Shown piece after piece: positions 216 to 45,925 of a DNA stretch of 64,000 nt (within the stretch, counting starts at the first letter, position 1; every line of letters begins with the position of its first letter). The position numbers and the translations under genes were made by a program. The stretch is taken from the NCBI GenBank assembly GCA_963733455.1, contig CAVTDE010000007.1, positions 44,854 to 108,853 of the forward strand, written 5' to 3'. Origin of the DNA: an uncultured Bacteroidales bacterium (GTDB lineage: Bacteria > Bacteroidota > Bacteroidia > Bacteroidales > VadinHA17). The notes under the pieces were generated by a model. It did not search any database, had not been told where the DNA came from, and was given only the letters and a program-made list of their open reading frames with translations.

Positions 216-409
216 TCAATTTAAGATATTGTTCCGCTGTTACCATTGGCTTCATACCTTATTAATACATACTTGCCATAATAATTGTTTAAAATCAGTG
301 TGCTTTCAGGATCCAGATGAGAGCGAGTTAGTCGGACGAACGCTCTCGATCAACAAGTGAGAGACAAAATGACGTTGATTAGAGTAATCCTGTTGATAAA
401 CAAAAATGC

Positions 410-2125: not shown

Positions 2126-2407
2126 ATCCCGGGTCAGCATTACTGATGGCATGATATTAGCATTCCTTTCAGCCGATAACTGAAGCCTAATCAAAATCCA
2201 ACAGTTAAAGATAAAAATAAAAGCTCAATAGCGTTGGCCGCGCCGGATGTTCTAAGCTTCAGGACGGATTTTACTATTTGACTTATAATGTATAAATTAG
2301 TACCTTAGTTGGTGACTTTATTGAAATTATGTTAAAGGTCTATTTTGCACTCGGATGCAAATTAGGAGTCTATCCAATGGTTAAGCAAATCAGAGGAGAT
2401 TGATTAA

Positions 2408-3214: not shown

Positions 3215-3219
3215 AATAA

Positions 3220-4014: not shown

Positions 4015-4196
4015 GAATGGAACAAGAAGAGCCGGAGGCCTTGACCATATATTAACCACTACAAATTGACTACCAAAATCACTTTTTCATCTCCCTCTCT
4101 CCCCCTCTCCCTTTCTCCCCCTCCTTCTTATTTGTCTTCAAAACAAATTTTTCGGCGAAGACCACAGAGGACGCAAAATGGTTGAATCCTTTTTCC

Positions 4197-4204
4197 TACT
4201 TTTG
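4197..4204 (+). promoter_or_regulatory. Candidate Bacteroidota -7 promoter element (TAnnTTTG)
   Basis: TACTTTTG lies 18 nt upstream of the 4222 ATG. This is a motif match only. Confidence 0.3.
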
Positions 4205-4221
4205 AAACCTCAAACGAAAAG

Positions 4222-6396
4222 ATGCTCAGCTCTAAACGATTCCTTCTCTTAATCCTATTTCTCTCCGGAGTAATATTGCTTTATTCCCAGGAGAAGGCTG
4301 TGAACCGTGATAAATACCGTATTAACATATCACGAACCAGCGAGGCAATGAAGATTGACGGAGTGCTTGATGAAAAATCCTGGCAGGTCTCAGAGGTAGC
4401 TGAAAATTTTATACGTGTGACGCCGGTGGATACAGGTTTTGCAATTGCAAAAACTACAGTTGTAATCACCTACGATAAATCAAATATATATGTCGGAGCT
4501 GTCTGCTATGATCCCTTACCCGGAAAAAGACCCGTGGAATCCCTGCGCAGGGATTTTGAGTTTGGCAAAAATGATAACTTCAGGATACATATAGATACCT
4601 ATAATAACCAGACGAATGGATTTGCCTTCGGCGTCTCTGCAGCGGGCGCCCAGTGTGACGGAGTGATAAACAACGGAAACCAGTCGAGCTTTACCTGGGA
4701 TATCAAATGGAAATCCGCAGTGAAGAGCTACAACGATCGCTGGGTGGCTGAGATGGCCATCCCTTTCCGCAGTCTCCGTTATCTCGGGGGAGAGAAAGAA
4801 TGGGGAGTCAACTTTGGTCGGCTAGATCTTAAAACGAACGAAAAATCAGCATGGGCTCCTGTTCCGCGTCAATTTCCTCACAACTCTCTGCCACACGCAG
4901 GATCTCTGATGTGGGATAAGCCCCTTGATAAAGCTGGATTACGGTTATCCATCATCCCTTACGCCACTTCTACAGTCATAAAAAATACAGAAGCAGGCGA
5001 ATCTGCAAAATGGAAATGGAACGCAGGTTTTGATACTAAAATGATATTGTCAACATCCATGAACCTCGACCTGACAGTCAATCCTGATTACTCCCAGGTT
5101 GAGGAAGACAGGCAGCAGACTAATCTCGATCGCTTTGAATTGTTTTATCCTGAAAGACGACAGTTTTTTCTTGAGAACAGTGACCTGTTTGCCGATCTCG
5201 GGAACAGTCAGGCACGTCCTTTCTTTTCAAGGCGTATCGGACTTAATGTCCCTGTAAATTTCGGCGGAAGATTGACCGGAAGGATTGGCAATAAATGGAG
5301 GATCGGGATGATGGATATGCAAACAGGATCAAAAGGCGAAAGCCGTTCAGGTAATTACGCGGTCGCTGTTCTGCAGCGTGAGATCTTCAGCCGTTCCAGT
5401 ATTGTAGGGTTTCTTGTCAATAAAAATATCACTGAATCGTTTGATGATTCTGCGTTCACCGGGTACCGTTACAACAGGGTGGCAGGACTGGAATATAATT
5501 ACGCAAGCGCAGATAACCAGTGGCAGGGTAAAGTATTCTATCATCAGTCATTTTATCCGGGAGCGGGCATGGATGCTGCAGCTGTTTCCGGAAATATCAG
5601 TTATTCCTCTCAGTATCTGAAAGCCGGTATCGATCAGTCGTGGATAGGATCTGATTACATTGCCGAAGCTGGTTATATAAGAAGAACAGGTTTCTATGAG
5701 CTCACACCGTCTGTCAGCTACCTGTTTTATCCATCAGGGTCAAAAAGGATCATCAGTCATGGTCCCGGTGCCAGCTTCAATGCGATCTTCGATCCGGAAT
5801 TCAATCTTACTGACCGGGAAACACAGCTTTCATATAGTATCGGATGGCAGAATAAAAGCCAGCTGTCCGTCAGCATTGAAGAACAATTCGTTAAGCTCAG
5901 CAGTGCTTTTGATCCTACCAATACCGAGGGAGAGAAATTTGTCGCAGGTGAGCAGTTTAACTGGAAAAGTGTCCGGGCGGGATTTACTTCAGATGCCCGA
6001 AAATTATTCAACTACACCCTGAATGCAAGCATCGGAGGTTACTATAACGGAAACCGCTGGAACATCAGCGGACTGATTAACTACCGGGTACAGCCATATG
6101 GCAGCATCGGAATGACAGCGAGCTATAACAATATCTTATTACCCGAGCCTTACAACAGTGCGAAGTTGATCCTTGTGGGACCCGCACTGGATATAACCTT
6201 CACGGATAAAATATTCCTCACTACATTCGTCCAGTACAACAACCAGGTCGATAACCTGAATATGAATATCCGCTTACAGTGGCGTTTTGCACCGGTGTCG
6301 GATCTATTTATTGTGTATACAGGGAATTCCTACACGGAAAATTTCGTGAATAAGAATCGGGGATTAGTCATTAAGCTATCATACTGGTTTAACTAA
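4222..6396 (+). CDS. CBM9-like / DUF5916 domain outer-membrane-type protein
   Basis: Signal peptide, then an N-terminal MKIDGVLDEKSWQ block typical of the CBM9-like domain. The long beta-rich C-terminal region ends in an aromatic SYWFN. Confidence 0.8.
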   Translation: MLSSKRFLLLILFLSGVILLYSQEKAVNRDKYRINISRTSEAMKIDGVLDEKSWQVSEVAENFIRVTPVDTGFAIAKTTVVITYDKSNIYVGAVCYDPLPGKRPVESLRRDFEFGKNDNFRIHIDTYNNQTNGFAFGVSAAGAQCDGVINNGNQSSFTWDIKWKSAVKSYNDRWVAEMAIPFRSLRYLGGEKEWGVNFGRLDLKTNEKSAWAPVPRQFPHNSLPHAGSLMWDKPLDKAGLRLSIIPYATSTVIKNTEAGESAKWKWNAGFDTKMILSTSMNLDLTVNPDYSQVEEDRQQTNLDRFELFYPERRQFFLENSDLFADLGNSQARPFFSRRIGLNVPVNFGGRLTGRIGNKWRIGMMDMQTGSKGESRSGNYAVAVLQREIFSRSSIVGFLVNKNITESFDDSAFTGYRYNRVAGLEYNYASADNQWQGKVFYHQSFYPGAGMDAAAVSGNISYSSQYLKAGIDQSWIGSDYIAEAGYIRRTGFYELTPSVSYLFYPSGSKRIISHGPGASFNAIFDPEFNLTDRETQLSYSIGWQNKSQLSVSIEEQFVKLSSAFDPTNTEGEKFVAGEQFNWKSVRAGFTSDARKLFNYTLNASIGGYYNGNRWNISGLINYRVQPYGSIGMTASYNNILLPEPYNSAKLILVGPALDITFTDKIFLTTFVQYNNQVDNLNMNIRLQWRFAPVSDLFIVYTGNSYTENFVNKNRGLVIKLSYWFN

Positions 6397-6449
6397 CTTC
6401 ATAAACCGCAAAGGAAGTAAAGTACGCAGAGAAAATTTTTTGCGAAGTG

Positions 6450-6530
6450 CCCTGCCTGCAGGCTGGCAGGCAACAGGCAGGTTCGGGGCGCTAAAACAGA
6501 GTGAGAGTGAGAGCGAGAGTGCGATCAGGA
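6450..6530. repeat. Intergenic hairpin/GAGAG-rich repeat (family B copy 1)
   Basis: cctgcc...ggcagg hairpin followed by ttcggggcgctaaaacagagtgagagtgagagcgagag. Related copies lie at 12687-12738 and, inverted, at 34668-34708. It sits between convergent gene ends. Confidence 0.6.
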
Positions 6531-7032
6531 TCATCGGTAGGCTATATCCATTATTTCAAAAACAATATCTTCCCTGTCCCGCTTTAAAGTAATCTTGTCT
6601 CCGACTTTTTTATTTATCAATGCTTTGGCTAAAGGTGAAATAAATGAGATCTTACCTTTGGCAATGTCTGCTTCATCAACACCAACTATCCGAAAAATCT
6701 GCATGTTACCAGACACTCCAGTTTTGAGGGTCACCAATGCACCGAACCTTATTTCGTTTTGAGGTTGCTCATTCAGATCAACAACTTTGGCTTCGGCAAT
6801 TCTGTTGTTCAGCAACTGTAATTTTGCATTAATATAGTTCAGGGAAATTCGTTTCTCATTTTCGCTGGTGCTGCTCAGGTTGTCTTTTTCATGGATCAGC
6901 ATCTCTTTTTCAGCTAATAGCTGATCCATTCCGGTCCGGGTAACAAAGTTTGTTACACCCTCCGGTAAATATGCCCTCCGGGACTATCGGAATTTCTTCC
7001 TGATCGTCTTCCTTGACAAATCCTCTGCTCAT
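6531..7032 (-). pseudogene. GreA/GreB-family transcription elongation factor homologue, interrupted by a 1-nt frameshift
   Basis: ORF 6531..6929 carries the C-terminal GreA-like domain (FGALVTLK...IVGVDEADIAKGKISFISPLAKALINKKVGD). The conserved N-terminus MSRGFVKEDDQEEIPIV starts at the ATG at 7032 in another frame. The frames meet at the CCC/GGG run near 6974-6983. The span is 502 nt (3n+1). Confidence 0.75.
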
Positions 7033-7196
7033 TGCATTTAGATCTGAACTACTAATTTTTCTCTTAAAGAATATACTCTAACAAATATAGTCAGTTTTTG
7101 CAGTAACCTGTTTTTTAATAGTCCGTATGTCATCCCGCTCGTAAAAAAATTTTTATTAATTTTCAACCTCTCAAAAAGGATTTAAATTTCTGTAAA

Positions 7197-8708
7197 ATGA
7201 CTATAAAGAAATCTGTTCCCTGTTCTGCCGAAAGACATGAAGCAAAAAAAATAAGCAGACGTAAAGTGCTGAAAAGTATGGTACTTGCACCGATTAATCT
7301 GAGCTTTTTCCTGTCTGTCATCAAAGCCCAGGGAAAAAGACAGGGATATCCTGAGGAAATCAATCTGCCGGGGAATTATTATCCCGGAAATGGGAGACCG
7401 TTGGATAACCTCTACCTCCCCAACCGACCACTGGGTAAGGCACAGGGCATCCTGCCAGGAAGGGTAAGCTGGGTATGGAATCCGGCATCCACAAATCCCG
7501 ATTGCATAAATAAACCCACATCAAAAGATGCCCCTTCGGTAGAGTATAATGCCTGGTTTATGGATAAAAATACAAACCAGGAAATAGTAGATCTTATGCT
7601 CAAAGCCGGCATATGTTCAATGGCCGGTAAGGAAAAGCAAGCTGAAGCCTGGGATTCCATATTCAGATATCATAATCAGAAGCGTGCCAAAGGAAACGTC
7701 CCTTACCTTGAAGGTGAAAAAATATATATTAAGCTGAACAGGACCTCTGCATCCGGAGGAATGAGTCCTGATTACAGGAGACTGGACGATAACCCTTTAA
7801 CTCTGGCTTGCGAAACATCACCCCAGATTGTTATTTCAGTGCTCAGACAACTTGTTCATGTTGCAGGTGTACCCCAGGAATGTATTTATGTGGGAGATGC
7901 TATGAGAAATATTTATCAGGATGAATACATTAAATACTATGCCGAATATCCACGGGTGAATTATCTATCAAGTTTTGGCGCCACACATGGAAGGATTCAC
8001 ACAAGTGAATCCAAAAAAGACCTGATATTTTATTCAGATAAAAAATCCATTATGAGCGAGGCAGGATCGGATAAGATCTATACCGTACTTGAAGATGCCG
8101 AATATCTTATAAACCTGGCAGCGATGAAGGGACATGGTATTGCCGGGATCTCCCTGTGCGCTAAAAATCATTTTGGGACACAAACAAGGCGCGATGCCTC
8201 TCACCTCCACGCCGGACTGAAAAATAGAAACAGTCAGGGATATGGAAACTATAGGGTACTGGTCGATCTTATGGGAAACAAGTTTACCGGTGACAAGAAC
8301 CTTTTCTTCATCCTCGACGCTCTCTGGTCAGGTTCAGATTGGAACGGGCTTCCTGTTAAATTCTTAATGCCTCCCTTTAATAATCACTGGAGTTCGTCCC
8401 TGTTCCTGTCGCTCGATCCGGTCGCTATAGAATCGGTAGCTTTTGATATTCTGAGAACTGAGTTCTCATTACCCGAACATACTGTTCCGCATATTCTTGA
8501 GCCTGGGGTCGATGATTATCTGCACCAGACAGCCGATTCGGGAAACTGGCCTGCGGGGATCAACTATACTCCAAATAACGATGGTATTCCGATTCCAAAA
8601 AGCCTGGGTGTTCATGAGCACTGGAATAATCCGGCAGACAAGCAGTATTCAAAGAACCTTGGTACAGGTGAAGGAATCGAACTGGTGAAAATCTTCCCCA
8701 GGAGTTGA
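7197..8708 (+). CDS. DUF362 domain-containing protein with Tat-type signal
   Basis: Twin-arginine ISRRKVLKSMVLAP. DUF362-like blocks KIYIKLNRTS and NLAAMKGHGIAGISLCAKNHFG. Confidence 0.7.
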   Translation: MTIKKSVPCSAERHEAKKISRRKVLKSMVLAPINLSFFLSVIKAQGKRQGYPEEINLPGNYYPGNGRPLDNLYLPNRPLGKAQGILPGRVSWVWNPASTNPDCINKPTSKDAPSVEYNAWFMDKNTNQEIVDLMLKAGICSMAGKEKQAEAWDSIFRYHNQKRAKGNVPYLEGEKIYIKLNRTSASGGMSPDYRRLDDNPLTLACETSPQIVISVLRQLVHVAGVPQECIYVGDAMRNIYQDEYIKYYAEYPRVNYLSSFGATHGRIHTSESKKDLIFYSDKKSIMSEAGSDKIYTVLEDAEYLINLAAMKGHGIAGISLCAKNHFGTQTRRDASHLHAGLKNRNSQGYGNYRVLVDLMGNKFTGDKNLFFILDALWSGSDWNGLPVKFLMPPFNNHWSSSLFLSLDPVAIESVAFDILRTEFSLPEHTVPHILEPGVDDYLHQTADSGNWPAGINYTPNNDGIPIPKSLGVHEHWNNPADKQYSKNLGTGEGIELVKIFPRS

Positions 8709-8767
8709 TCCGGTTTGAGAAACGCACCTGTCCCTGGAAGTTTCGGAGACCAACCTTAAAAAAATCA

Positions 8768-9160
8768 ATGAAAAAGTACTTTATCATCTTAGGTTGTATT
8801 CAGGCATTTATAGCTCTTGGAGCAATCCCTGCCGGATTGGGCTTCCTGTCCGATACGTCAGGAGCAAGAATGGGTAATTCTGTTGGGATGCTTGGAAACT
8901 CCCCTTTGAAAAGTTTCCTTATTCCCGGACTCTTTTTGTTGATTGTGCATGGATTTGGAAATGTCGCCGGTGCAATACTTTCATTCAGAAAGAACACTCT
9001 GGCCGGACTTTCAGGGCTTTCACTCGGCTTAATCCTGGTCCTTTGGATAGTAATTCAGGTGCACTGGATTGGACTTGGCAGTTTTATGCAACCACTGTTT
9101 TTTGTAATTGGTGTCCTGGAGGCTACAATGGGATGGATAATCTATAGGAATTCTTTCTAA
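8768..9160 (+). CDS. Small integral membrane protein (4 predicted TM helices), function unknown
   Basis: The ATG at 8768 gives MKKYFIILGCIQAFIALGAIPAGLGF. The sequence is hydrophobic throughout. The track ORF 8705.. starts at an upstream TTG that overlaps the DUF362 stop. Confidence 0.6.
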   Translation: MKKYFIILGCIQAFIALGAIPAGLGFLSDTSGARMGNSVGMLGNSPLKSFLIPGLFLLIVHGFGNVAGAILSFRKNTLAGLSGLSLGLILVLWIVIQVHWIGLGSFMQPLFFVIGVLEATMGWIIYRNSF

Positions 9161-9165
9161 ACAGA

Positions 9166-10215
9166 TTATTCTTTCATCCAGTTTATAAGGTTGTTTATAA
9201 ATGGCTGAGGCATGATCTGAAGGCCATTTGCATCGCCGATGAAGAATATTTTGCTTTTCGGATAGTTGAGAATTCCCATTACCGGAGGTGCCACAGGTTC
9301 GCCTTCATCCTTGATTCCGTTAAAATTCATATCGGCATAATCATTTTCACCTAACCATCCAAGTATCTGAATATCTGGATTCTGATCTGCGTTGATAAGA
9401 ACGGAGCCGGCAAAATAATCGAGACTGATGAGATTTTCGGTAATAATGTGACTGGCAAATTTACTTATCTTTCCTCCTGCCATGCCTGTGAATTCCAAGC
9501 CCAGGAGATCACCCAGTTCATCTTTTGGATCGTACTTTTTGTGATCAGTGAAAAAGACCAGGTTCATACCTCTTTTGACAAGTTTGGAATAGACATCAAG
9601 TTCATTTGCAGTATACGTTTGGAATCCATTAACTCTGATGACTATAAAATATCCCATAAAATGTTCCTCTTTTAGCTCTTCTCCCCTGCCCAGTTCATCC
9701 ACTTTGAATCCTTTCTGACGAAGCAGATCGGCAAATATCTTACCCTGATGATACTCGTCGGGATTAAAACCTGTCTGCTCTGATTGTGGGAACCACCATA
9801 CGCCACCATCGTGCGAGGCATCAATAACAATCCTTTTACTTACCGGAACTGCCGTTACATTCCACTCATCTTTCTGATTATTTATATCTTTTAGCTCGTA
9901 AGTAACAGTCCGGGAGAAATCGGTAGCCGAACTCCCTGAAACCTGCTCTTCCCCATTTAAATAAACAGTAATACCCGAGGGAACCTCAAACCGTGGTACC
10001 AACTTTGTAATATCCACATCAGACTCAACCTCAAGCTTCACCTGCTTCTGATTAATTTTTATGGCAGTAGACAGTATTGTCTGTCCATTTGTTGAAAACG
10101 AAAGAAAGCCTCCCTCAGGCTCAGGACTCTGAACTTCCGGTTCATCTTTCTCACATGATATCAGTAATAGCGGAAAGATAATGAACCAGATTCGATTGAT
10201 CAACTTTGTTTTCAT
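9166..10215 (-). CDS. Hypothetical lipoprotein
   Basis: Lipobox LLLISCEKDE. An N-terminal beta-sandwich-like segment is followed by an alpha/beta-like C-terminal half. No family was recognised with confidence. Confidence 0.65.
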   Translation of the reverse strand: MKTKLINRIWFIIFPLLLISCEKDEPEVQSPEPEGGFLSFSTNGQTILSTAIKINQKQVKLEVESDVDITKLVPRFEVPSGITVYLNGEEQVSGSSATDFSRTVTYELKDINNQKDEWNVTAVPVSKRIVIDASHDGGVWWFPQSEQTGFNPDEYHQGKIFADLLRQKGFKVDELGRGEELKEEHFMGYFIVIRVNGFQTYTANELDVYSKLVKRGMNLVFFTDHKKYDPKDELGDLLGLEFTGMAGGKISKFASHIITENLISLDYFAGSVLINADQNPDIQILGWLGENDYADMNFNGIKDEGEPVAPPVMGILNYPKSKIFFIGDANGLQIMPQPFINNLINWMKE

Positions 10216-10246
10216 GGTTAATATCTTTTAGTTATTGAATACAAGC

Positions 10247-10492
10247 TTAGTCTGAATCAATTTCATATTCATCAGTAGGATAACTTTCTCCGGTGATACA
10301 AGTAAAACAGCTAAGTCCGACAGTAGCTGATCCGATCACCCAAATGTCGTTACCGCAATGACATTTTTTACCTTTTTTAAAAGCATCAAGGGCACTATTA
10401 AGTCGAATCCTTAAGTCTTTCTCGTTTTCAGCAGGATTACTTTTGAGATGGAGTTTTACATATTTGTCCAGGGAAATGGGAACAAAGCTCAT
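10247..10492 (-). CDS. Small hypothetical protein with a 4-Cys (CxC...CxxC) zinc-ribbon-like motif
   Basis: 81-aa ORF with CHCGNDIW...CFTCITGE and an acidic tail. Confidence 0.5.
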   Translation of the reverse strand: MSFVPISLDKYVKLHLKSNPAENEKDLRIRLNSALDAFKKGKKCHCGNDIWVIGSATVGLSCFTCITGESYPTDEYEIDSD

Positions 10493-10873
10493 AGGTATTA
10501 TCGAATTAAAAATTTATCCCCTGAAGGTAATAATTTTTTTTTATCCGTTAGGCGTCGGAGAGCATAAATCCTGGCAGATGGGCAGGAGTTGTTCTGTCAC
10601 TATGAAGTTGTCCGGATGGATGATACTCAATAAACGGCTGAGAACTCTCATGTCAAGACGAAATTTGTTAAGTGATGAATCAGGGTATTAATGTCAGGTT
10701 TCAGCCATATCGCACATTTTTTTTGCCTCCAATTTTTTTTACATTTACATATAAATTAAAAATAAGTCTGCCCGGGAAATAATAGGGCGTCAGATTGCCT
10801 GTGCTTCCCGAAAAGATAAATTTCAGACTTAAACTCTGAATGACTACATTTTATCCGTTTTAATAAAAAAATT

Positions 10874-12637
10874 ATGTCCTGTACAAAAAAAATAAAATCC
10901 GGGAAAGTGGCCGGAAACCTTATTCCGGTTTTTCTCGGTGTGTGGATAATTATTTCAACGGGACCGGGCTGTTCTGAAAAAAACAAGACATACCGTCAGG
11001 GTACCAATATTGAAGTAGGTATAATCGGTATAAATTCTGAGCAGGTCAGGAAATATGAAAAATTTGAACTGGTTCTTGATCTGAAAAATGTCAGGTTTGA
11101 TAATCCCTACGATCCGGCCGACATAGACCTCTATGCTTTGTTTAATTCACCCTCGGGACAAACAATAAAGATCAATGGTTTTTTCGATAATTACAAAGGG
11201 GCAAATCAATGGAAGATCCGTTTTTCACCGGGTGAAACAGGGGAGTATAAATACCAGGTATACATAAAAGATGGATCAGAAAAAGGTGAGTCCCGGAGTT
11301 CTGCCTTCATGGCTGTTGAATCTGAACATCATGGATGGATAAAACCATCAGTCAAAAACCCCCATTATTTCGCATATGATGACGGGACCTCATATTATGG
11401 AGTAGGCGCTTATTCGCCATGGGGAAACAATGAGAAGGTTTTCAGGACATTTGTCGAAAATAAAGCTAATTTTTTTGCAATCTGGGATATTAATTACGGC
11501 GGTTTTGTAAACAGTGCCGGTATTATAGAAGAAAAGCTTGGCCGGTATAACCAGGAAAAACTCGGACAAATCGATTCATTGCTTTCGATTCTGGAAAAAA
11601 ATAATATCAAACTGATGTATGCAATCTGGCCGCACGACCTGTTCTCTGAAACCGTATGGGCAGCACAATGGAAACTGAATCCCTATAAACAGATCACTAA
11701 TGCTGAAAATGTTTATGGTGATTCCGTTGCCTGGGGATACCAGAAGATGAAATACCGCTATATGATAGCACGGTTTTCCCATAGCAGAAGCTGGGGAATA
11801 TGGGAGCTGATCAATGAAATGGATGGCACAGACGGATGGGCAAAAGGTCATCATAATGAGGCTTATGCCTGGGTTGAAAAATGTGCAAGGTATTTTTCGG
11901 AGAACGACCCCTATAAACACCCTCTAACTGCCTCATTCAGCGGCGGTTTCAAACAATACCGCGATTCGCTTTACAGGTTAACCGAAATTCCGAACATACA
12001 CCTTTATCCTGCCCAGGGATGGATGCCCAGGTATCCCGACGACAGTCTGAGAAGTGATATGTATAATTTCGCATGGGCGAGTAAGCGTTTCTGGGACAAT
12101 TTCGAAAAACCTGCGATTTTTGGAGAGGCCGGAGCTGACCTTACTTACTACAAACCCGAATCAAAAGAATATCATATCTCTTATCATAATCAGATATGGG
12201 CATCACTTGCAAACGGGCTTGCTGTAACACCGGTGTGGTGGACCGCTTCAATTATGAATGACCAGGACTGGGAACAGCTCAGTCATTTGTCAGTATTTGT
12301 ATCCGATATCGATTTTGCTAACCTTCCATATAAACCGCTACAGGCAAAAGCTTTAAACGCTGATATTTATGTGATGGACTGTGGTGAAAAAGGATTCGGA
12401 TGGACAAGGTCTTTTAAGAACGATAAGATTGATAATACAAGATTAATCCTTATTAAACCTGATAAAGGGTATTATATTGCAACATGGTACGATGCATGGA
12501 CCGGTAATATCGTAAAATCGGAAAAGGTCTCTTCAGCGAACGGAGAACTTATTCTGACGGTTCCCGTCCTGGAACATTATAGTCAGGATATTGCATTTAA
12601 AATCAGTAAAATAAGTGATTCTCAAGTTGGACCCTAA
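10874..12637 (+). CDS. DUF5060 N-terminal domain plus GH5-like (clan GH-A) glycoside hydrolase lipoprotein
   Basis: Lipobox STGPGCSE. DUF5060-like YEKFELVLDL...NPYDPADIDLYALFNSPSGQTIKINGFF. WELINE block (the NE acid/base motif of GH5-type TIM barrels). Confidence 0.75.
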   Translation: MSCTKKIKSGKVAGNLIPVFLGVWIIISTGPGCSEKNKTYRQGTNIEVGIIGINSEQVRKYEKFELVLDLKNVRFDNPYDPADIDLYALFNSPSGQTIKINGFFDNYKGANQWKIRFSPGETGEYKYQVYIKDGSEKGESRSSAFMAVESEHHGWIKPSVKNPHYFAYDDGTSYYGVGAYSPWGNNEKVFRTFVENKANFFAIWDINYGGFVNSAGIIEEKLGRYNQEKLGQIDSLLSILEKNNIKLMYAIWPHDLFSETVWAAQWKLNPYKQITNAENVYGDSVAWGYQKMKYRYMIARFSHSRSWGIWELINEMDGTDGWAKGHHNEAYAWVEKCARYFSENDPYKHPLTASFSGGFKQYRDSLYRLTEIPNIHLYPAQGWMPRYPDDSLRSDMYNFAWASKRFWDNFEKPAIFGEAGADLTYYKPESKEYHISYHNQIWASLANGLAVTPVWWTASIMNDQDWEQLSHLSVFVSDIDFANLPYKPLQAKALNADIYVMDCGEKGFGWTRSFKNDKIDNTRLILIKPDKGYYIATWYDAWTGNIVKSEKVSSANGELILTVPVLEHYSQDIAFKISKISDSQVGP

Positions 12638-29586: not shown

Positions 29587-29841
29587 TTAGGATAAGTTAT
29601 TTCTATTATCTGGCACACACCAGCCTTCGTCTTCCGGACAGATCGACCAGGATTCCACAATCCCCCACTGGCTGTAAGGTCCCCAGTGCATCAGTAACCC
29701 GAATTTAATATCCTGCCATTGATCTATTCTTGTTTGAATCAATGGATTAGGATCAGGAACATAGATCTGTTCATTGTGTTGGGCAGATACTCTCATTACT
29801 GACAGGGCCAGAATAAAGAAAAGAAGTTTTTTTGATTTCAT
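29587..29841 (-). pseudogene. N-terminal remnant of a GH29 alpha-L-fucosidase
   Basis: Signal peptide plus RIDQWQDIKFGLLMHWGPYSQWGIVESW, the GH29 N-terminal block. It stops after 84 codons and no continuation appears in any frame before the next gene. Confidence 0.6.
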
Positions 29842-30473: not shown

Positions 30474-30678
30474 CTGGAGGGAGTGGCTCTCCTGGGTTTC
30501 CCCCCAGATTACAGGGGAGGTATTGTGGTGGATTGAGGGGGAGAGGCCGGAATGCCAGGAAAAAGTAATTAAGCTTTGATTGCGTTAATTTGGTTTTTAC
30601 AAAAACTTAATATACCTTGAACATAAAAACTATTGTTTGGCAACCTTTAGAAACAATCCGCAATTAAAACTCAGACAT

Positions 30679-32169
30679 ATGAAAAAGAACGAGAAGACAA
30701 GAAGCCTAAAAGGGAAGAGTCTGTCGAGACGGAATTTCATCGGCACAGTTGGTGCGGCATCAGCTGCATTTACCATTGTCCCGCGTCATGTTTTGGGTGG
30801 AACCGGATATACTGCACCCAGCGACCTGATTAATATTGCAGGAATTGGAGTCGGAGGTCGTGGGGCAAGTAATATACGGGCAATAAGCGATCCTGATGAA
30901 ATTGTACAACCTCAAAAAATAAAATATGAAGACGTAATTCCTGCTCCGGCACAAAACGACACCAGATCGCAGGTAGCAAGAACGCCTATCAAGCTCGCGA
31001 ACATATATGCTTTATGTGATGTGGATGAGGAGAGAGCAGCTAATACATATAAAGGTTATCCGAAAGCGAAGATTTATAAAGATTTTCGGAAGATGCTTGA
31101 AAGAGAAAAATCAATCGATGCAGTCGTTATAAGTACACCGGACCATACTCATGCTGTTGCCTCCATGATGGCAATCAAAATGGGAAAGCATGTGTATTGT
31201 GAAAAGCCTTTAACTCATACGGTATATGAAGCCCGTGAATTGGCCAGGGCCGCAAAAGAAGCCAAAGTAGCCACGCAAATGGGTAACCAGGGGATGGCAT
31301 ATGATGCCAACAGACAGCTTAAGGAATGGCTTTGGGATGGAGCTATTGGTCAGGTACGTGAAGTGCATGCCTGGTCCAATCGTCCTATCTGGCCACAGGG
31401 TATTGAACGACCTGTGGATACTCCCCGTGTGCCTGCAACGCTCGACTGGGATTTATGGCTTGGACCATCTCCCTATCGACCTTATAATCCAGCCTATGTG
31501 CCTTTTGCCTGGAGAGGCTGGTTTGATTTCGGAAGTGGAGCCATAGGTGATGAGGCTATTCATAACCTTGCTCCGGTATTCACCTCCTTAAAACTAACCG
31601 CGCCCACACGCGTTCACGGAAGTTTTACACCCATCTTTCCGGAAACATTTCCACTTGCTTCTTTGCTTCACTTTGAGTTTCCGGCACGGGATAAAATGCC
31701 CCCGGTAACAGTTCATTGGTATGACGGAGGTCTCCTGCCCCAGAGGCCAGGCGAGCTTGATGCTGATGCTGTTAATGGTGTTTACAGTACAGATGTGCCT
31801 GATTGGGATAAAGCAAACGGAGTAATTTTTGTCGGTGACAAAGGTAAGCTCCTTTCACGTGGGGAAGGGACAAGAACACTAAGGTTCATACCTCAATCAA
31901 GGATTAATAATTACAAGCAGCCGGCTCAGACCTTACCACGTTCTATCGGGCATCACAAGGAATGGATCGAAGCTTGCAAGGGCAATGGAACAACTGAATC
32001 TGATTTCAGCTTTGCCGGGCTATTGACCGAAGCATGTCAACTCGGAAATATCTGTTTGAGAACAGGTGGTAAGGCAATCGAATGGGATTCGGCAAACTTT
32101 AAAATTACCAATAATGAGGAAGCGAATAAACTTCTTCATTTCGACTACCGCGATGGGTGGAGCTTATAA
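30679..32169 (+). CDS. Gfo/Idh/MocA family oxidoreductase with Tat signal
   Basis: LSRRNFIGTVGAASAAFTIVP, IAGIGVGGRG, VYCEKP. The ATG at 30679 is preferred over the TTG at 30637. Confidence 0.9.
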   Translation: MKKNEKTRSLKGKSLSRRNFIGTVGAASAAFTIVPRHVLGGTGYTAPSDLINIAGIGVGGRGASNIRAISDPDEIVQPQKIKYEDVIPAPAQNDTRSQVARTPIKLANIYALCDVDEERAANTYKGYPKAKIYKDFRKMLEREKSIDAVVISTPDHTHAVASMMAIKMGKHVYCEKPLTHTVYEARELARAAKEAKVATQMGNQGMAYDANRQLKEWLWDGAIGQVREVHAWSNRPIWPQGIERPVDTPRVPATLDWDLWLGPSPYRPYNPAYVPFAWRGWFDFGSGAIGDEAIHNLAPVFTSLKLTAPTRVHGSFTPIFPETFPLASLLHFEFPARDKMPPVTVHWYDGGLLPQRPGELDADAVNGVYSTDVPDWDKANGVIFVGDKGKLLSRGEGTRTLRFIPQSRINNYKQPAQTLPRSIGHHKEWIEACKGNGTTESDFSFAGLLTEACQLGNICLRTGGKAIEWDSANFKITNNEEANKLLHFDYRDGWSL

Positions 32170-32435: not shown

Positions 32436-33305
32436 ATGTCCAAAGGTGCTCATATTACTTATCTATGCGTTTTTGTTGCCGTAATTTTAATTGTCACTAT
32501 TACCGGTGCTTATTATGGTAGTTCATATTATACGGTCAGCCTTGAGGATAGGTTCTATCACCCTGATAATAAAAGCCTTAAACCAAGTGGTTATATTGGT
32601 CACAGCATGGGAATTATGGGATCTATTTGTATTATCAGCGGGGTTGGATTATATATGGCAAGGAAAAGATATCGATTTTTAAACCGGGTCGGGAAATTGA
32701 TGTACTGGCTTGAATTTCATATCTTCATGTGTATCCTGGGAACAATAATGGTTGTATTTCATACAACTTTCAAGTTAGGCGGTGTAGCTGGTATTAGCTT
32801 TTGGAGTATGGTCACAGCCCTGGTAAGCGGAGTAGCAGGGCGGTTCATTTATCTTCAGATCCCCAGGACAATTGAAGGCCGGGAGCTTGACCTTAAAGAA
32901 GTAAGGGAAATTCGAAATGACATTCTTTCGGAAATCAGGGATTCCTACAGTATGGATGAAGAAACTTTTAAATACATTTCATTTTCAATTGAAAAGAGAT
33001 CAGTAATTTACATTGAAAACAGGCATCCCCGGTTTTTGAAGAAGTCGAGGGATGACAGGAAAACCATCCACAAAATTAACAGTTTCCTCAGGCAAATTAA
33101 ATTGTCACGGTCCAAACGGTCACAGATAATGGCTCTTGTTAAGAATGATATAAGACTTGAGAGAATTTTGGAGCGGCTTGAAAGGATGAAAAACCTCTTC
33201 CGGTACTGGCATGTTTTTCATTTTCCCTTTACCATTGTAATGCTGATATTTCTGATAATACATGTGATGATAATTGCAGCCCTGGGTTATGCATGGAACT
33301 TTTAG
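32436..33305 (+). CDS. Integral membrane protein with two H-x13-H helices (possible b-type heme binding)
   Basis: 5 predicted TM helices. EFHIFMCILGTIMVVFHTTF and VFHFPFTIVMLIFLIIHVMI each carry His pairs 14 positions apart. A charged cytoplasmic coiled segment lies between them. Confidence 0.6.
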   Translation: MSKGAHITYLCVFVAVILIVTITGAYYGSSYYTVSLEDRFYHPDNKSLKPSGYIGHSMGIMGSICIISGVGLYMARKRYRFLNRVGKLMYWLEFHIFMCILGTIMVVFHTTFKLGGVAGISFWSMVTALVSGVAGRFIYLQIPRTIEGRELDLKEVREIRNDILSEIRDSYSMDEETFKYISFSIEKRSVIYIENRHPRFLKKSRDDRKTIHKINSFLRQIKLSRSKRSQIMALVKNDIRLERILERLERMKNLFRYWHVFHFPFTIVMLIFLIIHVMIIAALGYAWNF

Positions 33306-33307
33306 TT

Positions 33308-34640
33308 ATGGACCATACAATTTTCAAAATATTGTTTTATTGCTTTGCGGCATTCCTGAGTGCCTGTGTGATAATTCTTTACCTGCGCAGAAAGGCAAAG
33401 CAGTCAAAAATAACAGACGAGAAGATTGAAAAAGCTCTGGAAAATGGCCTTCATGAACCGGTTTCACTTTATCCGCATGTCGACATTAACAGTTGCATCG
33501 GTACAGGTGCATGTGTTAAAGCATGTGTTGAAAAAGACATACTGGGAATTAAAACATGGAAAAGCAGTAATTATAAATGCTGCCCGGTGTATAGGTCATG
33601 GAGCATGTTTCCATGCATGTCCCACTCACGCGATCTCCTTAAAGATCGGCACCGAGAAACGGGGTGTCGAACTCCCTCATGTCAGCAAAACCTTTGAAAC
33701 CAATGTCACTGGCATATTCATAGCCGGAGAGCTTGGCGGAATGGGTCTCATAAAAAATGCTGTCGAGCAGGGGAGACAAGCCACGGAAAACATTATCAGG
33801 TCGCTGAAAAAGGGACATGGCGCGGATTATGATATCATTATAGTAGGGGCCGGTCCGGCAGGCATATCAGCATCCCTTACCGCAAAAAAGAATGATGTCA
33901 GATTCCTCCTTCTTGAACAGGATTCCCTTGGTGGAACAGTCTATACCTATCCCCGTAAGAAAGTAGTAATGACTTCACCAATGCATCTGTCGCTTATAGG
34001 CAAAATAAAATTGTATAAGACAAGCAAAGCAGTTCTTCTGGATCTTTGGAAATCCGTCCTCTCCAAATACAATATTACTGTCCATGAAAACTGCAAAGTG
34101 GAATCGATTATCAGAACGAACACTCATATCGAGGTGATCACATATGACAATCAGATTTACAAAACTGCTTCTGTTTTGCTTGCAATAGGGAGGCGCGGAA
34201 GCCCACGTAAGCTTAATGTACCTGGCGAATTGAAGGAAAAGGTCGCTTACCGGCTCCTCGAACCTGAGGGTATCAAAGGCAAAAATATACTGATAGTGGG
34301 AGGCGGCGATTCCGCAATTGAAACTGCATTGCTGCTTGCTGATGAAAATCATGTAACAATTTCCTACAGGAATGAGGTTTTTAACCGTATCAAACCTGTT
34401 AACAACATTGCGATTAACAAAGCAGCGGCTGAAGGGAGGATAGAGTTAAGGTTTAATACAAATCTCATCAAAATAGAGGATGAAATCATAACTCTTTCTT
34501 CATGTACTGATGGCAGGAATTTAAACCTAAGAAATGATCTTGTATTTATTTTTGCCGGAGGTGAATTACCTACCCAGTTCCTTGAAAAAACGGGAATTCA
34601 GGTCACAAAGAAATTCGGCGAAACAATAATGAAACACTAG
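33308..34640 (+). pseudogene. Membrane-anchored ferredoxin-like plus FAD/NAD(P)-binding (pyridine nucleotide-disulfide type) oxidoreductase, 1-nt frameshift
   Basis: ORF 33293..33697 (TM helix plus CIGTGACVKAC) and ORF 33426..34640 (CIGHGACFHACP, IIIVGAGPAGISA, ILIVGGGDSAIE) join as ..DILGIK|HGKAVIIN.. at the A4 run 33551-33554. The span is 1333 nt (3n+1). Confidence 0.75.
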
Positions 34641-35990: not shown

Positions 35991-37196
35991 ATGGGAAATA
36001 ACAATCGCAGGGAATTTCTGAGGAAAAGTATTTTCGGACTTTCCGGAGCAGCATTATTACCTTCAAATCTAAAGATAACCCCAAAGGTATTACCATCTTC
36101 TCCTCCTGACCTTCCATCGCGCCTACTTGGAAAAACAGGCATCAAAACCCCATTAATCAGCCTGGGTACAAGTGGCGTAACAGCTCCCGGTTTTGTCAGA
36201 GCTGCATACGAAGCCGGAGTTAAAATGTTTTTTTCAGCAACCTACTATGGTGAAGGAAACAATGAAATTCTGGTCGGAGAAGGTTTGAAAGGTTTACCAA
36301 GAGAATCATTTATTGTAGGGACTGCAGCAATACCGGAAGGTATTGACACGCGTTCGGGTACCCTTCCACGTAACTTTACTTCTGATTCTTTTATGAAAAC
36401 AGCAGACGCCAGTCTTAAACGATTTGGTCTTGATCATATCGATATTCTCCTTCTTCCCTTTGCAGGTAAAAAAGAGACTGTCCTGCACGATGCTGTTTTG
36501 AGAACAATGGAACAAGTAAAAAAACAGGGGAAAGCGAGGTTTGTCGGAATTGCTTCCCACGCAGACACTGAAGAGGCTTTAAATGCCGCTGCCGGGTCGG
36601 GTATTTATGATGTGGCAATGATTGCCTATAATTTTAAATCTCAGAACAAAGGATCATTGAATGCAGCAGTTGCCAATGCCGTCAGTAAAGGCATGGGTAT
36701 TGTTGCAATGAAAACGATTGCCGGTGCTGCCCTTGACAAAGCAGGAACTGCCCTTAACATCAATGCTGCGCTCAAATGGGTTTTGCGGAATGAAAACATA
36801 TCAAGTATCGTTTCGGGTATGACATCGCTGGATGAATTGCAGAAAAACCTGTCAATGATCCAAAACCTGAAAATGACTGAGAAGGAACTAAAAGACCTTA
36901 ATATCGCAGCATCAGGTTCAGAAACCGGACTTTATTGTCAGCAATGCAGGCAATGTATTCCACAATGCCCGAATAACATTGATATTCCAACAATCATGCG
37001 AAGCTATATGTATGCATACGGGTACAGGAATATCGAACAGGCATGGTACACACTGGCTGATGCAAAATTATCAGGCAATCCATGCGTAAAATGCGATGTT
37101 TGTAGTGTAAATTGTGTGTCAGGTTTTAATGTTAAAAATAAGATCCTTGATATTGCCCGACTGAAGGATGTCCCTAAGGATTTTGTCGTGGCTTAA
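35991..37196 (+). CDS. Aldo/keto reductase with C-terminal Cys-cluster (FeS) region and Tat signal
   Basis: NRREFLRKSIFGLSGAALL. AKR-like TIM-barrel body. C-terminal CQQCRQCIPQCP and CVKCDVCSVNC. Confidence 0.8.
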   Translation: MGNNNRREFLRKSIFGLSGAALLPSNLKITPKVLPSSPPDLPSRLLGKTGIKTPLISLGTSGVTAPGFVRAAYEAGVKMFFSATYYGEGNNEILVGEGLKGLPRESFIVGTAAIPEGIDTRSGTLPRNFTSDSFMKTADASLKRFGLDHIDILLLPFAGKKETVLHDAVLRTMEQVKKQGKARFVGIASHADTEEALNAAAGSGIYDVAMIAYNFKSQNKGSLNAAVANAVSKGMGIVAMKTIAGAALDKAGTALNINAALKWVLRNENISSIVSGMTSLDELQKNLSMIQNLKMTEKELKDLNIAASGSETGLYCQQCRQCIPQCPNNIDIPTIMRSYMYAYGYRNIEQAWYTLADAKLSGNPCVKCDVCSVNCVSGFNVKNKILDIARLKDVPKDFVVA

Positions 37197-41889: not shown

Positions 41890-43439
41890 TCAGGTGACAG
41901 GTCCCGGATTAAATAACACCAGATCATTATGTAATCCTATTTTATCACAGGCAACTTGTTTTTCACCGCTGGCGACATTTAAAATCAAATGAAAGAGTTC
42001 CCATCCCATTTCTTCAATTGTTTTTTGTCCCAGCGCTACCTGTCCTGCATCAAGATCAATCAAATCAAACCAGCGACTACTCATCTTTGAATTTGATCCA
42101 ACTTTTATTACCGGCACCATAGACAATCCATAAGGAGTTCCCCGGCCGGTCATAAAAACGTGGACATTCATCCCCGAAGCCAGTTGTAATGTTCCACATA
42201 TAAAATCGCTGGCAGGCGTGGCTGCAAAGGTCAATCCTTTTTTCCTGATCTTCTCGCCGGGGGCCAACACATCCACAATATGGCTGGTTCCTGATTTTGC
42301 TATTGATCCAAGAGCCTTTTCGACAATATTACTTAATCCTCCGCTTTTATTCCCGGGTGTCGGATTGGCACTCCGGTCCGAATCTCCTTTAAAAAGGTAT
42401 TCATCATACCATTTCATTTCATTTATAAGGGCTTGTCCGACTGATGAATTTATTGTTCTTGGAACCAATAAATGGACTGCATCCCTTACTTCCGTTACTT
42501 CAGAAAACATAACGCTTCCACCTGCACGAACAATTAAATCTGCAGCAAATCCTGCAACCGGATTTGAAGTAATCCCGGAAAAGGCATCACTCCCTCCGCA
42601 CTGCATCCCTACTATTAATTCTGAGGCAGGAACAATTTCTCTTTCCCGTTTATTAAGTTCTTTCAAATGCTCTTCAGCCAATATCATTGCCCCTTTTATC
42701 ATATCATTGAATCCTTTAAAGGATTCATCCTGCATCTTCATAACATTTGAAACATAGTTCCATGAGGTCTCTGATGATTGATCTAATTCAGGAAGAAGTT
42801 TATCCGGTAACAATTTCTCGCATCCAAGTCCGATAATCAAAATTCTTCCGCCAAAATTCGGATTCCTGGCAATGTTTTTTATTGTCCTTATCGGAATGAC
42901 AGCCCCCGGAGCATTAATTGCCACACCACATCCATAGTATGATTCAAAGGTATCACATCATCCACTCTGGGATACTTTGGCAGTAATTCATCTTTTATCT
43001 TTTTGGCAACATAACTGGTAAAACCAGTGACGCAATTGACAATGGAGGTAATCCCCAGAATATTTTTTGTCCCTACGCTGCCGTCAGGATTGCGAAAACC
43101 TTTAAATACATAACCTTCCAATGGCTGTGACTCAGGCTTCGGATTAACAGCTAACGGTATGGAATCCAGATCAGGTGGTTGCGGAAGAGAAACCAGGGAT
43201 TCCCGGACCCATTCTCCACGCCTGATCAGTTTGTTCGCATAACCGATTACCTGGCTGTATCTGATAATTTTATCGCCACCATATATATCATTTAAAGCTA
43301 CTTTGTGCCCGATCGGGACATTTTCAGATAACTGTGTGCCATCTTCAAGAATAGTCCCTCCGGGTAATCCGTTAAGATTGACCACAATCCCGACGTTATC
43401 TGCTTTCGCTCTTTTAATTATTATTGGTTTCTCCGGCAT
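41890..43439 (-). pseudogene. garD: Galactarate dehydratase (GarD, UxaA family), 1-nt frameshift
   Basis: Collinear with my recollection of E. coli GarD over the full length (NVGIVVN..GHKVAL..IIRY..VIGYA; [11 protein letters not shown]; TEVRDA; [24 protein letters not shown]; FNPGPVT*). The two ORFs (42888..43439 and 41890..42924) overlap in different frames inside the conserved [14 protein letters not shown] block near 42930-42940. The span is 1550 nt (3n+2). Confidence 0.85.
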
Positions 43440-44577: not shown

Positions 44578-45925
44578 TTAACGAACAAGGCAAGGTCTCT
44601 TATTGTCAAATTTCCATCCTGGTATCAGGTATTGCATGGCCATGGAGTCGTCCCTTGCCCCAAGTCCTTTTTCCATATAAAGTTTATTTGCTTTTTCAAT
44701 TTGATCCATATCAATTTCAATTCCCAGACCTGGTTTGTCAGGTACAGAAATCATTCCGCCAGTAATTTTAAGAGGTTCTCTGGTTAAACGTTCCTGTCCT
44801 TCCTGCCAGATCCAGTGTGTATCCAAAGCAGTAATTTTACCGGGTGCTGCAGCCCCGGCATGAACAATCATTGCAAGCGATATATCAAAATGATTATTGG
44901 AATGTGAACCCCATGTTAATCCCCATTCCTGACAAATCTGGGCAACACGTACCGCACCCTGCATTGTCCAGAAATGCGGATCGGCCAATGGAATATCTAC
45001 CGCATGCAATTGAATTGAGTGTCCCAGCTGACGCCAGTCAGTAGCGATCATATTTGTGGCTGTCATCAGGCCTGTTGCCCGCCTGAATTCTGCCATTATT
45101 TCACGTCCTGAGTAACCATTTTCCGCACCGCAGGGGTCTTCTACATAGGCAAGTATATCGTGCTTATTCCTGCATAACTTTATAGCCTCATCAAGCGACC
45201 ATGCTCCATTAGGGTCTATCGTGATCCTGGCATCGGGAAAACGATCAGCGAGTGCAACCACCGCTTCCATTTCCTTGCTACCGCTCATTACCCCGCCTTT
45301 CAGCTTAAAGTCTTTAAAACCATAGCGTTGTTGAGCCGCTTCTGCCAGCCGTACAATTGCTTCAGGGGTCAGGGCAGCTTCACTCCGCAATCTTAACCAG
45401 TCATCCTTGTGATTTGAGGTGTTCAGATATGGCAAATCGGTTTTTTTGCTGGTCGCCAATATAAAATAAATAGCCAAGCATCTCCACCTTTTGACGCTGC
45501 TGGCCTGTGCCAAGCAAGGCGGCAACAGGAACACCAAGGAACTGGCCAAGAAGATCCAGTAATGAAGTTTCAAGTGCTGTTATGGCATGAATAACAATTC
45601 GTAAATCGAAGGTCTGTAATCCACGCCCCCCGGAATCCCTGTCACCAAACTGTTTTCTGACATCGTTAAGGATATCATTATAAGAACCTATAGATTTGTT
45701 AATTACAAATGTTTTTGAATCTTCCAGAACCTGCCGGATACGATCTCCTCCGGGAACTTCACTTACACCTGTGTGTCCGGCATTATCTTTTAAAATTACA
45801 ACATTCCTTGTAAAGAAAGGGCTATGGGCACCGCTAAGGTTAAGCAGCATGCTGTCGTAGCCGGCAACCGGGATCACCAACATTTCAGTTACCACCGGTG
45901 CTCCTTTAAAATTCTCCATGTCCAT
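44578..45925 (-). pseudogene. gudD: Glucarate dehydratase (GudD, enolase superfamily), 1-nt frameshift
   Basis: Near-collinear with my recollection of E. coli GudD (FKLKGGV..., [100 protein letters not shown]). ORFs 45401..45925 and 44578..45573 switch frame at the T7 run 45441-45447. The span is 1348 nt (3n+1). Confidence 0.9.

Follow-up and report, generated by a model that had tools for sequence, protein, structure and literature searches.

The window, a stretch of 64,000 nucleotides (nt) from an uncultured Bacteroidales bacterium (GenBank assembly GCA_963733455.1, contig CAVTDE010000007.1, positions 44,854 to 108,853 of the forward strand), carries two adjacent genes, here called A and B, which with a probability of roughly 0.55 code for a two-subunit transmembrane oxidoreductase that would move electrons across the inner membrane, from NAD(P)H in the cytoplasm to the periplasmic side, without the participation of quinones. 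Gene A codes for an inner membrane protein with the predicted features of a two-haem cytochrome b, and gene B for a predicted flavoprotein that carries a ferredoxin-like domain of its own. In the relatives of the pair, the two genes are linked to genes for giant multihaem cytochromes and a porin-like protein, a link that is visible only in these relatives and not from the window. It is tentatively proposed, and at somewhat less than even odds, that A and B represent an unrecognised machine similar to NADPH oxidases, i.e., a quinone-independent NAD(P)H:multihaem-cytochrome oxidoreductase, which would be the true inner membrane entry of PCC3-type conduits across Bacteroidota, Acidobacteriota and probably other phyla, and that the lineage of the window re-uses the pair with another periplasmic acceptor.

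Conservation and genomic context of the gene pair

With respect to the coupling of the two genes, a comparison of 84 loci, comprising 80 species-representative genomes and four metagenome loci, shows that B lies directly downstream of A in each of them. The gap between the genes is 2 nt in 34 of the 51 loci in which it could be measured, and between 0 and 4 nt in 48 of these. In the window itself, the ATG of B at position 33308 follows 2 nt after the TAG of A (33303-33305), with an alternative in-frame ATG at 33293. Wherever distant relatives have enough flanking sequence, the two genes are found as a pair, even at an identity as low as 21%, and other phyla are no exception. Because the adjacency is invariant and the gap is tiny, a stoichiometric complex of the two gene products is suggested.

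Clustering of the neighbouring genes further reveals multihaem cytochrome c genes directly 3' of B in 80 of the 84 loci. Typically, A (289 amino acids, aa) and B (about 448 aa) are followed by a cytochrome of about 532 aa, a variable cytochrome and a porin-like protein of about 535 aa, the latter having a signal peptide, a C-terminal aromatic residue and no match in Pfam. The first cytochrome after B has a median of 20 CxxCH motifs (23 in Saprospiraceae), and the second has between 13 and 41 haems in the typical loci. The linkage extends to loci in which A is only 21-25% identical: in L085 (21%) the pair is followed by cytochromes with 20 and 35 haems, and in L090 (G + C content of 64%) by cytochromes with 23 and 46 haems and a porin-like protein. 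Also in the Acidobacteriota (Terriglobales; L094, positions 1-11342, and L095, positions 372-11351) the same gene set as in the Bacteroidota is found in another order, with a 23-haem cytochrome, a cytochrome of 31-42 haems, a porin-like protein and a secreted protein of 266-269 aa preceding A and B; the pair is likewise present in L091. One of the porin-like proteins from Acidobacteriota has 985 aa and an AMIN domain, and the conserved gene for the secreted protein in L094 and L095 overlaps the start of A.

The pair is also found in Emticicia oligotrophica DSM 17448, a cultured aerobic isolate of the Cytophagales, where it resides on the 100-kb plasmid pEMTOL02 (L092; NC_018749.1, 78197-90781). 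There it is part of a seven-gene cluster consisting of a fused ccsA gene (1028 aa), A, B, a 23-haem and a 40-haem cytochrome, a 538-aa porin-like protein and a GW-domain protein, in this order. A (WP_015031196.1) and the 538-aa product are annotated as hypothetical proteins and B as "NAD(P)-binding domain-containing protein". Genes for a Rieske protein, a DUF5777 barrel, YceI and a c-type cytochrome lie 5' of the cluster on the opposite strand. The presence of the pair on a plasmid of a cultured strain makes genetic as well as biochemical experiments feasible.

The membrane protein A

Based on the published motif description, A should be filed as a protein of the type of the "conserved inner membrane protein" (IMP) of the PCC3/PCC4 porin-cytochrome clusters (He, Barco, Emerson & Chan 2017, Front Microbiol 8:1584; PMC5566968). 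The PCC3 IMP was defined as a protein of about 300 aa, annotated as hypothetical, with five transmembrane (TM) helices, an SGXXG motif on TM4 and a WX3HX13H motif on both TM3 and TM5, and it was predicted to bind two haems b; its genes belong to a four-gene cluster in Proteobacteria, in which the periplasmic and extracellular cytochromes have medians of 21 and 34 haems, respectively (PMC5566968). The protein from the window agrees with this description in its size, its five TM helices and the motifs on TM3, TM4 and TM5 (Table 1). The surrounding cluster of a porin with periplasmic and extracellular multihaem cytochromes, of about 20 and about 34 haems, is present in the loci of the relatives, whereas the 64-kb window has neither the cytochromes nor the porin. 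A further difference concerns B, since the proteobacterial four-gene cluster is described without mention of a flavoprotein (PMC5566968), whereas in the Bacteroidota and Acidobacteriota hosts B is always attached to A.

The original prediction, made from the letters of this stretch, had not recognised the pair as a named system. For A this has to be revised in view of its fit to the PCC3 IMP, and for B as a partner of PCC3 it still stands: the main text of PMC5566968 does not contain the words FAD, ferredoxin, thioredoxin or Bacteroidetes, no flavoprotein or ferredoxin term occurs in the supplements of the paper, and no paper was found that pairs PCC3 with a flavoprotein or describes the A-B pair, the coverage of subscription papers being incomplete. 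Later papers still describe PCC3 clusters as widespread but functionally unverified. As A was found in at least 556 species-level genomes, mostly metagenome-assembled genomes (MAGs) of Bacteroidales, Saprospiraceae, Cytophagales and Chitinophagales and including one MAG of the Chlorobiota, PCC3-like machinery is hereby extended to a large number of Bacteroidota and, in addition, to Acidobacteriota, neither of which are usually counted amongst the electroactive bacteria.

The two histidine pairs of A, which the original prediction had correctly placed 14 residues apart on two helices, lie within FHIFMCILGTIMVVFH (H95 and H109) and HFPFTIVMLIFLIIH (H262 and H276). On the sequence of A alone, this spacing is no more than mildly unusual, as two or more pairs at a spacing of 14 arise in 3.2% of shuffled versions of the protein, which has 10 histidines. 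Even one copy of WxxxHx13H is found in 0.4% of the shuffles, and the actual protein has two. Beyond these shuffle statistics, the pattern is taken as real because it is conserved among diverse relatives. Of 102 sequences that share 21-46% identity with the window protein, all have H109, 101 have H95, 98 have H276 and 97 have H262. H259 in the TM5 region is kept in 89 of the 102 sequences, and S131, G132 and G135 are invariant in alignment A1. A third histidine pair of the same spacing is formed by H42 in an outer loop and H56 at the start of TM2. These two residues are near-invariant in close relatives and found in only 53 and 68, respectively, of the 102 diverse relatives, so that they may represent a lineage-specific metal or haem site, or a coincidence.

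Hydropathy cores and charge distribution agree in predicting five TM helices with the N-terminus inside and the C-terminus outside, and the six lysine and arginine residues of loop 74-90 assign this loop to the cytoplasm in the positive-inside analysis. The AlphaFold2 model of A, with a mean predicted local distance difference test score (pLDDT) of 91.3 and a predicted template modelling score of 0.80, has helices at residues 3-32, 53-78, 88-109, 116-140 and 225-282, of which the first four are of membrane length and the last provides the fifth TM segment with its end, and a helical insert at residues 141-224 ahead of the long last helix; the cytoplasmic helical insert predicted in addition to the five TM helices comprises about 110 aa (residues 141-255) and is highly charged. 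In the model and by the charge analysis, the two histidine pairs are located at matching membrane depths on two TM helices, TM3 and TM5: H95 and H262 are probably close to the cytoplasmic ends of these helices, and H109 and H276 to the outer ends. It is proposed that H95, together with H262, ligates a haem on the cytoplasmic side, and H109, together with H276, a haem on the outer side of the membrane.

Homologues of A are numerous, with more than 5000 in a set of 5.8 billion proteins, nearly all of which have 289 aa, and 3247 cluster representatives at E<=1e-3 in a library clustered at 50% identity. For the window protein, all Pfam and NCBIfam models stay below threshold, with 17.7 bits for DUF4405 (gathering cut-off 26.7), 15.6 bits for Ni_hydr_CYTB (cut-off 30.1) and also a weak match to PepSY_TM. 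Amongst 89 members of the family, weak matches of hidden Markov models (HMMs) were found to DUF4405 in 31 (best E-value 5.7e-06), to Ferric_reduct in 12, to Ni_hydr_CYTB in nine and to PepSY_TM in two members. These matches are confined to two-haem cytochrome b families and comprise no characterised non-haem family. A sequence search of the PDB with the A2 profile of the family yielded nothing below E=0.48. Probably, A is distantly related to the di-haem b families DUF4405, MsrQ and ferric reductase, though it falls below the thresholds of their models.

There is experimental support that the DUF4405, PepSY-like and MsrQ-like proteins carry electrons across the membrane by means of haem b (Huang et al. 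2024, PMC11334425). A would share with them four histidines on two TM helices for two stacked haems b and the transfer of electrons across the cytoplasmic membrane. It differs from them in having five instead of six TM helices and the cytoplasmic insert, and whereas their partners are extracytosolic flavinylated proteins, the partner of A is predicted to be a cytoplasmic iron-sulphur (FeS) flavoprotein. The labels given to homologues of A by JGI, "sulfur relay DsrC/TusE family protein" in many cases and "TRAP-type C4-dicarboxylate transport small permease" in some Acidobacteriota, were treated as annotation noise; in general, the source annotations of the family are inconsistent and probably wrong, and the RefSeq label is "hypothetical protein".

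With histidines that are conserved, a partner gene that recurs with A elsewhere, also in other phyla, and HMM matches that point to di-haem b families, none of the three findings that the original prediction had named as speaking against its reading, a transmembrane chain from NAD(P)H via FeS clusters to haem, was encountered, and that reading is supported.

The flavoprotein B

B starts with a single hydrophobic TM helix (residues ~5-26), which is followed by the sequence RRKAKQSK, and by the positive-inside analysis the enzyme domains of B would thus be located on the cytoplasmic face of the membrane. All of the motifs listed for this gene in the original prediction are present (Table 1), including the two ferredoxin-like motifs that both lack the usual second Cys. 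The window protein has six Cys in these two motifs (CIGTGACVKAC(V) and CIGHGACFHACP) and does not show the eight-Cys pattern of 2x[4Fe-4S] ferredoxins, and the Pfam Fer4 matches of its two pieces are just under threshold. This deviation is not a peculiarity of the window, as in each of 70 intact copies from Bacteroidota the second Cys is replaced by Thr or Ser in motif 1 and by His in motif 2. Motif 1 has the form Cxx[T/S]xxCxxxCP, with Thr in 55 and Ser in 15 of these copies, and the canonical form CxxCxxCxxxCP in the distant relatives L085, L090, L091, L094 and L095. Motif 2 has the form CxxHxxCxxxCP in 70 of 70 copies and also in these five loci and in Emticicia (L092), where motif 1 reads CIGSGACVAACP. 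In total, the CxxHxxCxxxCP signature was seen in all of the 78 intact copies checked. This conserved motif can serve as a simple marker by which to find the family.

The second Cys is the position which is lost in [3Fe-4S] ferredoxins, and His-ligated [4Fe-4S] clusters are typically located where electrons enter or leave hydrogenases and complex I. Because of this typical location, we infer that the His-bearing cluster of B might be the one that contacts the haem of A.

The flavin part of B matches Pyr_redox_3 with 143 bits (E=1.3e-41) and Pyr_redox_2 with 92.7 bits, both being above the cut-off. Its closest solved structures are YpdA/Bdr (7a76, 7a7b) and ferredoxin-NADP reductases (FNRs) of the thioredoxin reductase (TrxR) type (2zbw, 3ab1, 5ygq, 3lzw), with E-values of 4e-28 to 1e-15. 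It scores well below the cut-offs of the NCBIfam model for YpdA (TIGR04018; 161.2 bits, cut-off 339.9) and of the TRX_reduct equivalog (82 bits, cut-off 343). With the TrxR-type FNRs 3lzw, 3ab1 and 2zbw and with YpdA/Bdr, B shares the two Rossmann motifs and the lack of a redox-active CxxC, and it differs from them by the addition of the N-terminal TM anchor and of the fused ferredoxin-like domain. By its domains and motifs, B is thus best described as a membrane-anchored TrxR-like flavoprotein which is fused to its own atypical ferredoxin and stands outside both the YpdA and the TrxR equivalogs. A function as a disulfide reductase acting on thioredoxin or bacillithiol was ruled out, since the flavin part has no CxxC: beyond residue 170, there is none in the 70 intact homologues or in the window protein. 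An invariant Ser-Tyr-Arg past the second Rossmann strand of the family and a second invariant Arg faintly hint at NADPH as the substrate.

State of the window copy of gene B

Whereas the original prediction treated B as a single gene, a frameshift that it overlooked splits B of the window into two open reading frames (ORFs), 33293..33697 (134 aa) and 33426..34640 (404 aa), with the two ferredoxin motifs in different frames. A three-way DNA alignment with the metagenome contigs L001 and L002 together with a three-frame translation locates one surplus base within ctgggAattaaaacat. Deletion of one base restores the reading ...DILGIKHGKAV..., in line with the family consensus DI+GI..G, and results in a 443-aa protein that is colinear with the homologues of 440-450 aa. 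L001 and L002 are the closest relatives of the window pair (A being 94% identical to that of the window), and B is broken in them as well, each time at another place: to the extra base in the window correspond a 4-nt deletion near 33992 and five 1-nt deletions in the two contigs, respectively. Programmed +1 frameshifting was ruled out as an explanation, since the frame is continuous in more than 70 homologues and a conserved recoding site is lacking.

The similarity between the window and the two contigs is restricted to a block of 2.5 kb comprising A and B (290-2809 in L001 and 373-2876 in L002) and stops abruptly at both ends, for which a rearrangement, the transfer of the pair as a unit or a chimeric assembly are candidate causes. 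L001 and L002 are 97% identical to each other, with 38 indels in 4.5 kb, and represent one locus, so that only two genomic contexts are known for a pair of the window type. Compared with these contigs, A has a ratio of non-synonymous to synonymous substitution rates (dN/dS) of 0.18-0.20 and every segment of B one of 0.08-0.21, and the pair is under purifying selection. Probably, B is intact in the organism and the frameshift is a sequencing or assembly indel.

A putative route for electron export

In the proposed oxidoreductase, NAD(P)H would reduce the FAD in the TrxR-like domain of B, which would be anchored by its one N-terminal helix with all its domains in the cytoplasm. From there, the electrons would proceed via the two FeS clusters of B, each with three predicted Cys ligands in this lineage, the second of which, carrying the His motif, might be either a His-ligated [4Fe-4S] or a [3Fe-4S] cluster. 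Next, they would be taken up by the haem b on the cytoplasmic side of A (H95/H262) and then by that on the outer side (H109/H276). The acceptor in almost all relatives would be the periplasmic cytochrome c with 20-23 haems, followed by the cytochrome with 13-46 haems and the porin-like outer membrane protein, so that the overall route in the relatives would amount to a PCC3-type extracellular electron conduit. The module would serve as a valve for the disposal of electrons, with a logic like that of NADPH oxidase.

With about -320 mV, the potential of NAD(P)H is well below that of likely extracellular acceptors, and electrons crossing the membrane from its negative to its positive side move electrically downhill. 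Outward flow would therefore be favoured, since it is downhill with respect to both redox potential and membrane potential, whereas electrons taken from Fe(II) and given to NAD(P)+ would have to move uphill in both respects.

As a system, A and B would resemble a split NADPH oxidase with an FeS relay. In the NOX/FRE enzymes and in the split system of MsrQ and Fre in E. coli, electrons pass from a pyridine nucleotide via a flavin to two haems b, resulting in electrogenic electron export, and the logic proposed for A and B is alike. However, the dehydrogenase part of NOX, which lacks FeS clusters, has an FNR fold and is fused to the haem domain, whereas B has a TrxR fold, forms a polypeptide of its own with a membrane anchor, and is predicted to insert two FeS clusters between flavin and haem. 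CymA, ImcH and CbcL likewise serve as inner membrane sources of electrons for the multihaem cytochromes of the periplasm, but these three are c-type or b/c-type quinol dehydrogenases, whereas A and B have no c-haem motif and comprise a built-in NAD(P)H-binding flavoprotein. If the proposal is true, many fermentative or aerobic bacteria of soils and sediments could dump reducing equivalents directly outside the cell.

Alternative explanations

A number of points weigh against this proposal. A Foldseek search of the A model against the PDB gave no match at E<=0.001, and an hhalign comparison of the A2 profile with E. coli MsrQ was not significant. The AlphaFold2 model of B, based on 29 sequences that are at least 77% identical, is poor, with a pLDDT of 57. 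In addition, no ORF with two or more CxxCH motifs was found across the 64-kb window, so that the proposed acceptor is absent locally, and the window copy of B departs from the family at 6 of 163 near-invariant positions, compared to a median of one in other copies. Finally, PCC3 was first found in Fe(II) oxidisers, in which electrons run inward, and He et al. put forward a quinone-reactive cytochrome b for the IMP (PMC5566968), a quinone site in A being compatible with the present data.

The last point leads to the main rival explanation, in which A would be a quinol- or quinone-reactive cytochrome b, like the b subunits of bc1 complexes and hydrogenases, that joins the quinone pool to the periplasmic cytochromes, and B would be an accessory protein off the direct path, e.g., an NAD(P)H:quinone reductase or a regulator. 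This was proposed for the IMP on the basis of its HX13H motifs (PMC5566968), it would suit the Fe(II) oxidisers with PCC3, which need quinone reduction, and a membrane-anchored B could indeed hand electrons to quinone. It appears unlikely, however, in the light of the invariant adjacency of A and B and their minimal gap, and of the FeS domain of B with its conserved His variant, as would be required of a wire to a haem; moreover, no quinone-site motif was identified in A, though no rigorous search was made. In turn, the coupling of B to a PCC3-type IMP in every locus examined offers a testable alternative to the quinone model for the entry or exit of electrons in such conduits, and if the NAD(P)H-dependent oxidoreductase proposed here is real, the quinone-coupled model of PCC3 would be overturned, which for specialists in extracellular electron transfer would be a significant revision.

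Two further explanations concern the window more than the family. It is conceivable, but quite unlikely, that the pair is a decaying remnant which lost the cytochrome and porin genes and in which B was subsequently killed by a real frameshift, so that it would be non-functional in this organism. The split of B, its breakage also in L001 and L002, the six deviating residues and the absence of multihaem cytochrome genes from the window as well as from both contigs would all fit such a decay. However, the dN/dS values indicate selection through nearly all of the divergence, and at least three of the six deviations (Y55, V74 and A91) are read as traits of the lineage because they are shared with L001. 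Furthermore, three broken genes in 64 kb, at least two of them being housekeeping genes of sugar-acid metabolism with 1-nt frameshifts of their own, and the 38 indels within the single locus of L001 and L002 suggest that these assemblies are indel-prone. It is still less probable that the link to cytochromes is just one use of a pair whose acceptor may be any of several others in the periplasm, e.g., a reductase or an enzyme of repair as in MsrQ-MsrP, iron (ferric or bound to siderophores) that is reduced for uptake as in FoxB/PepSY-like proteins, or O2 as in NOX. Related di-haem families act in this way (PMC11334425), the window, L001 and L002 hold the pair under selection without adjacent cytochromes, and Tat-exported redox enzymes are encoded on both sides of the window pair. 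Yet these flanking genes are not kept with the pair in L001 and L002, the cytochromes found in 80 of the 84 loci and in other phyla speak for an ancestral partnership with multihaem cytochromes, and the cytochrome genes of the window lineage may sit elsewhere in the genome.

Neighbourhood of the pair in the window

The coordinates of the gene pair and of the neighbouring genes mentioned below are given in Table 1.

Table 1. Positions of the A-B pair, its sequence motifs and selected neighbouring genes in the window
Feature	Position	Strand	Remarks
A-B block common to window, L001 and L002	32225..34754	+	blastn, 93-94% nucleotide identity; flanks unrelated on both sides
Gene A	32436..33305	+	intact ORF, 289 aa; PCC3-IMP-type inner membrane protein, predicted two-haem cytochrome b
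Gene A, H42/H56	32559-32603		third His pair
Gene A, TM3 motif W91-x3-H95-x13-H109	32706..32762	+	motif reading and conservation
Gene A, TM4 motif S131-G-V-A-G135 (SGxxG)	32826..32840	+	motif reading
Gene A, TM5 motif W258-x3-H262-x13-H276	33207..33263	+	predicted partner ligands, two haems
Gene B, 5' part	33308..33553	+	frame 2; TM anchor and first ferredoxin-like motif
Gene B, CIGTGACVKAC	33494-33526		ferredoxin-like motif 1
Gene B, frameshift site	33547..33554	+	one surplus base (A or T in ggAATTAAAAc), frame +1
Gene B, 3' part	33555..34640	+	frame 0; second ferredoxin-like motif, FAD and NAD(P) motifs, stop codon 34638-34640
Gene B, CIGHGACFHACP	33588-33623		ferredoxin-like motif 2
Gene B, GAGPAG	33846-33863		FAD motif
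Gene B, GGGDSA	34299-34316		NAD(P) motif
GH29 alpha-L-fucosidase fragment	29587-29841	-	84-aa N-terminal fragment
Gfo/Idh/MocA oxidoreductase	30637-32169	+	predicted Tat export, signal SRRNFIGT
Aldo/keto reductase	35991-37196	+	predicted Tat export, signal RREFLRKS
Altronate/galactarate dehydratase (UxaA-like)	41890-43439	-	two overlapping ORFs, 1-nt frameshift near 42915
Enolase-superfamily gene (MR_MLE_C)	44578-45925	-	apparently frameshifted; ORFs of 174 aa and 331 aa overlap at ~45400-45570

A tblastn search of the window gave no match to the cytochromes or the porin of L003. The window pair thus stands as an orphan, whose cytochrome genes may be located elsewhere in the genome or which may use another acceptor. 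It is flanked by two genes for oxidoreductases with predicted export by the twin-arginine translocation (Tat) pathway, namely a Gfo/Idh/MocA oxidoreductase and, 1.3 kb from gene B, an aldo/keto reductase. The latter has a C-terminal two-cluster ferredoxin-like domain (CQQCRQCIPQCP and CVKCDVCSVNC), and such a periplasmic FeS protein could be an alternative acceptor or donor for the pair. A scan for intrinsic terminators found nothing, and a promoter scan was made with the sigma-70 consensus, which is not meaningful for Bacteroidota.

With respect to other interrupted genes in the window, the two ORFs of the altronate/galactarate dehydratase gene divide the Pfam profile GD_AH_second between them (positions 1-52 and 61-136), and LNHT reads in one frame at the site of the split. 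The enolase-superfamily gene seems to be affected in the same manner. Finally, the fragment of a GH29 alpha-L-fucosidase gene covers Pfam positions 5-56 of 345 and is the remnant of a truncated gene, directly downstream of which lies a nitroreductase-like gene.

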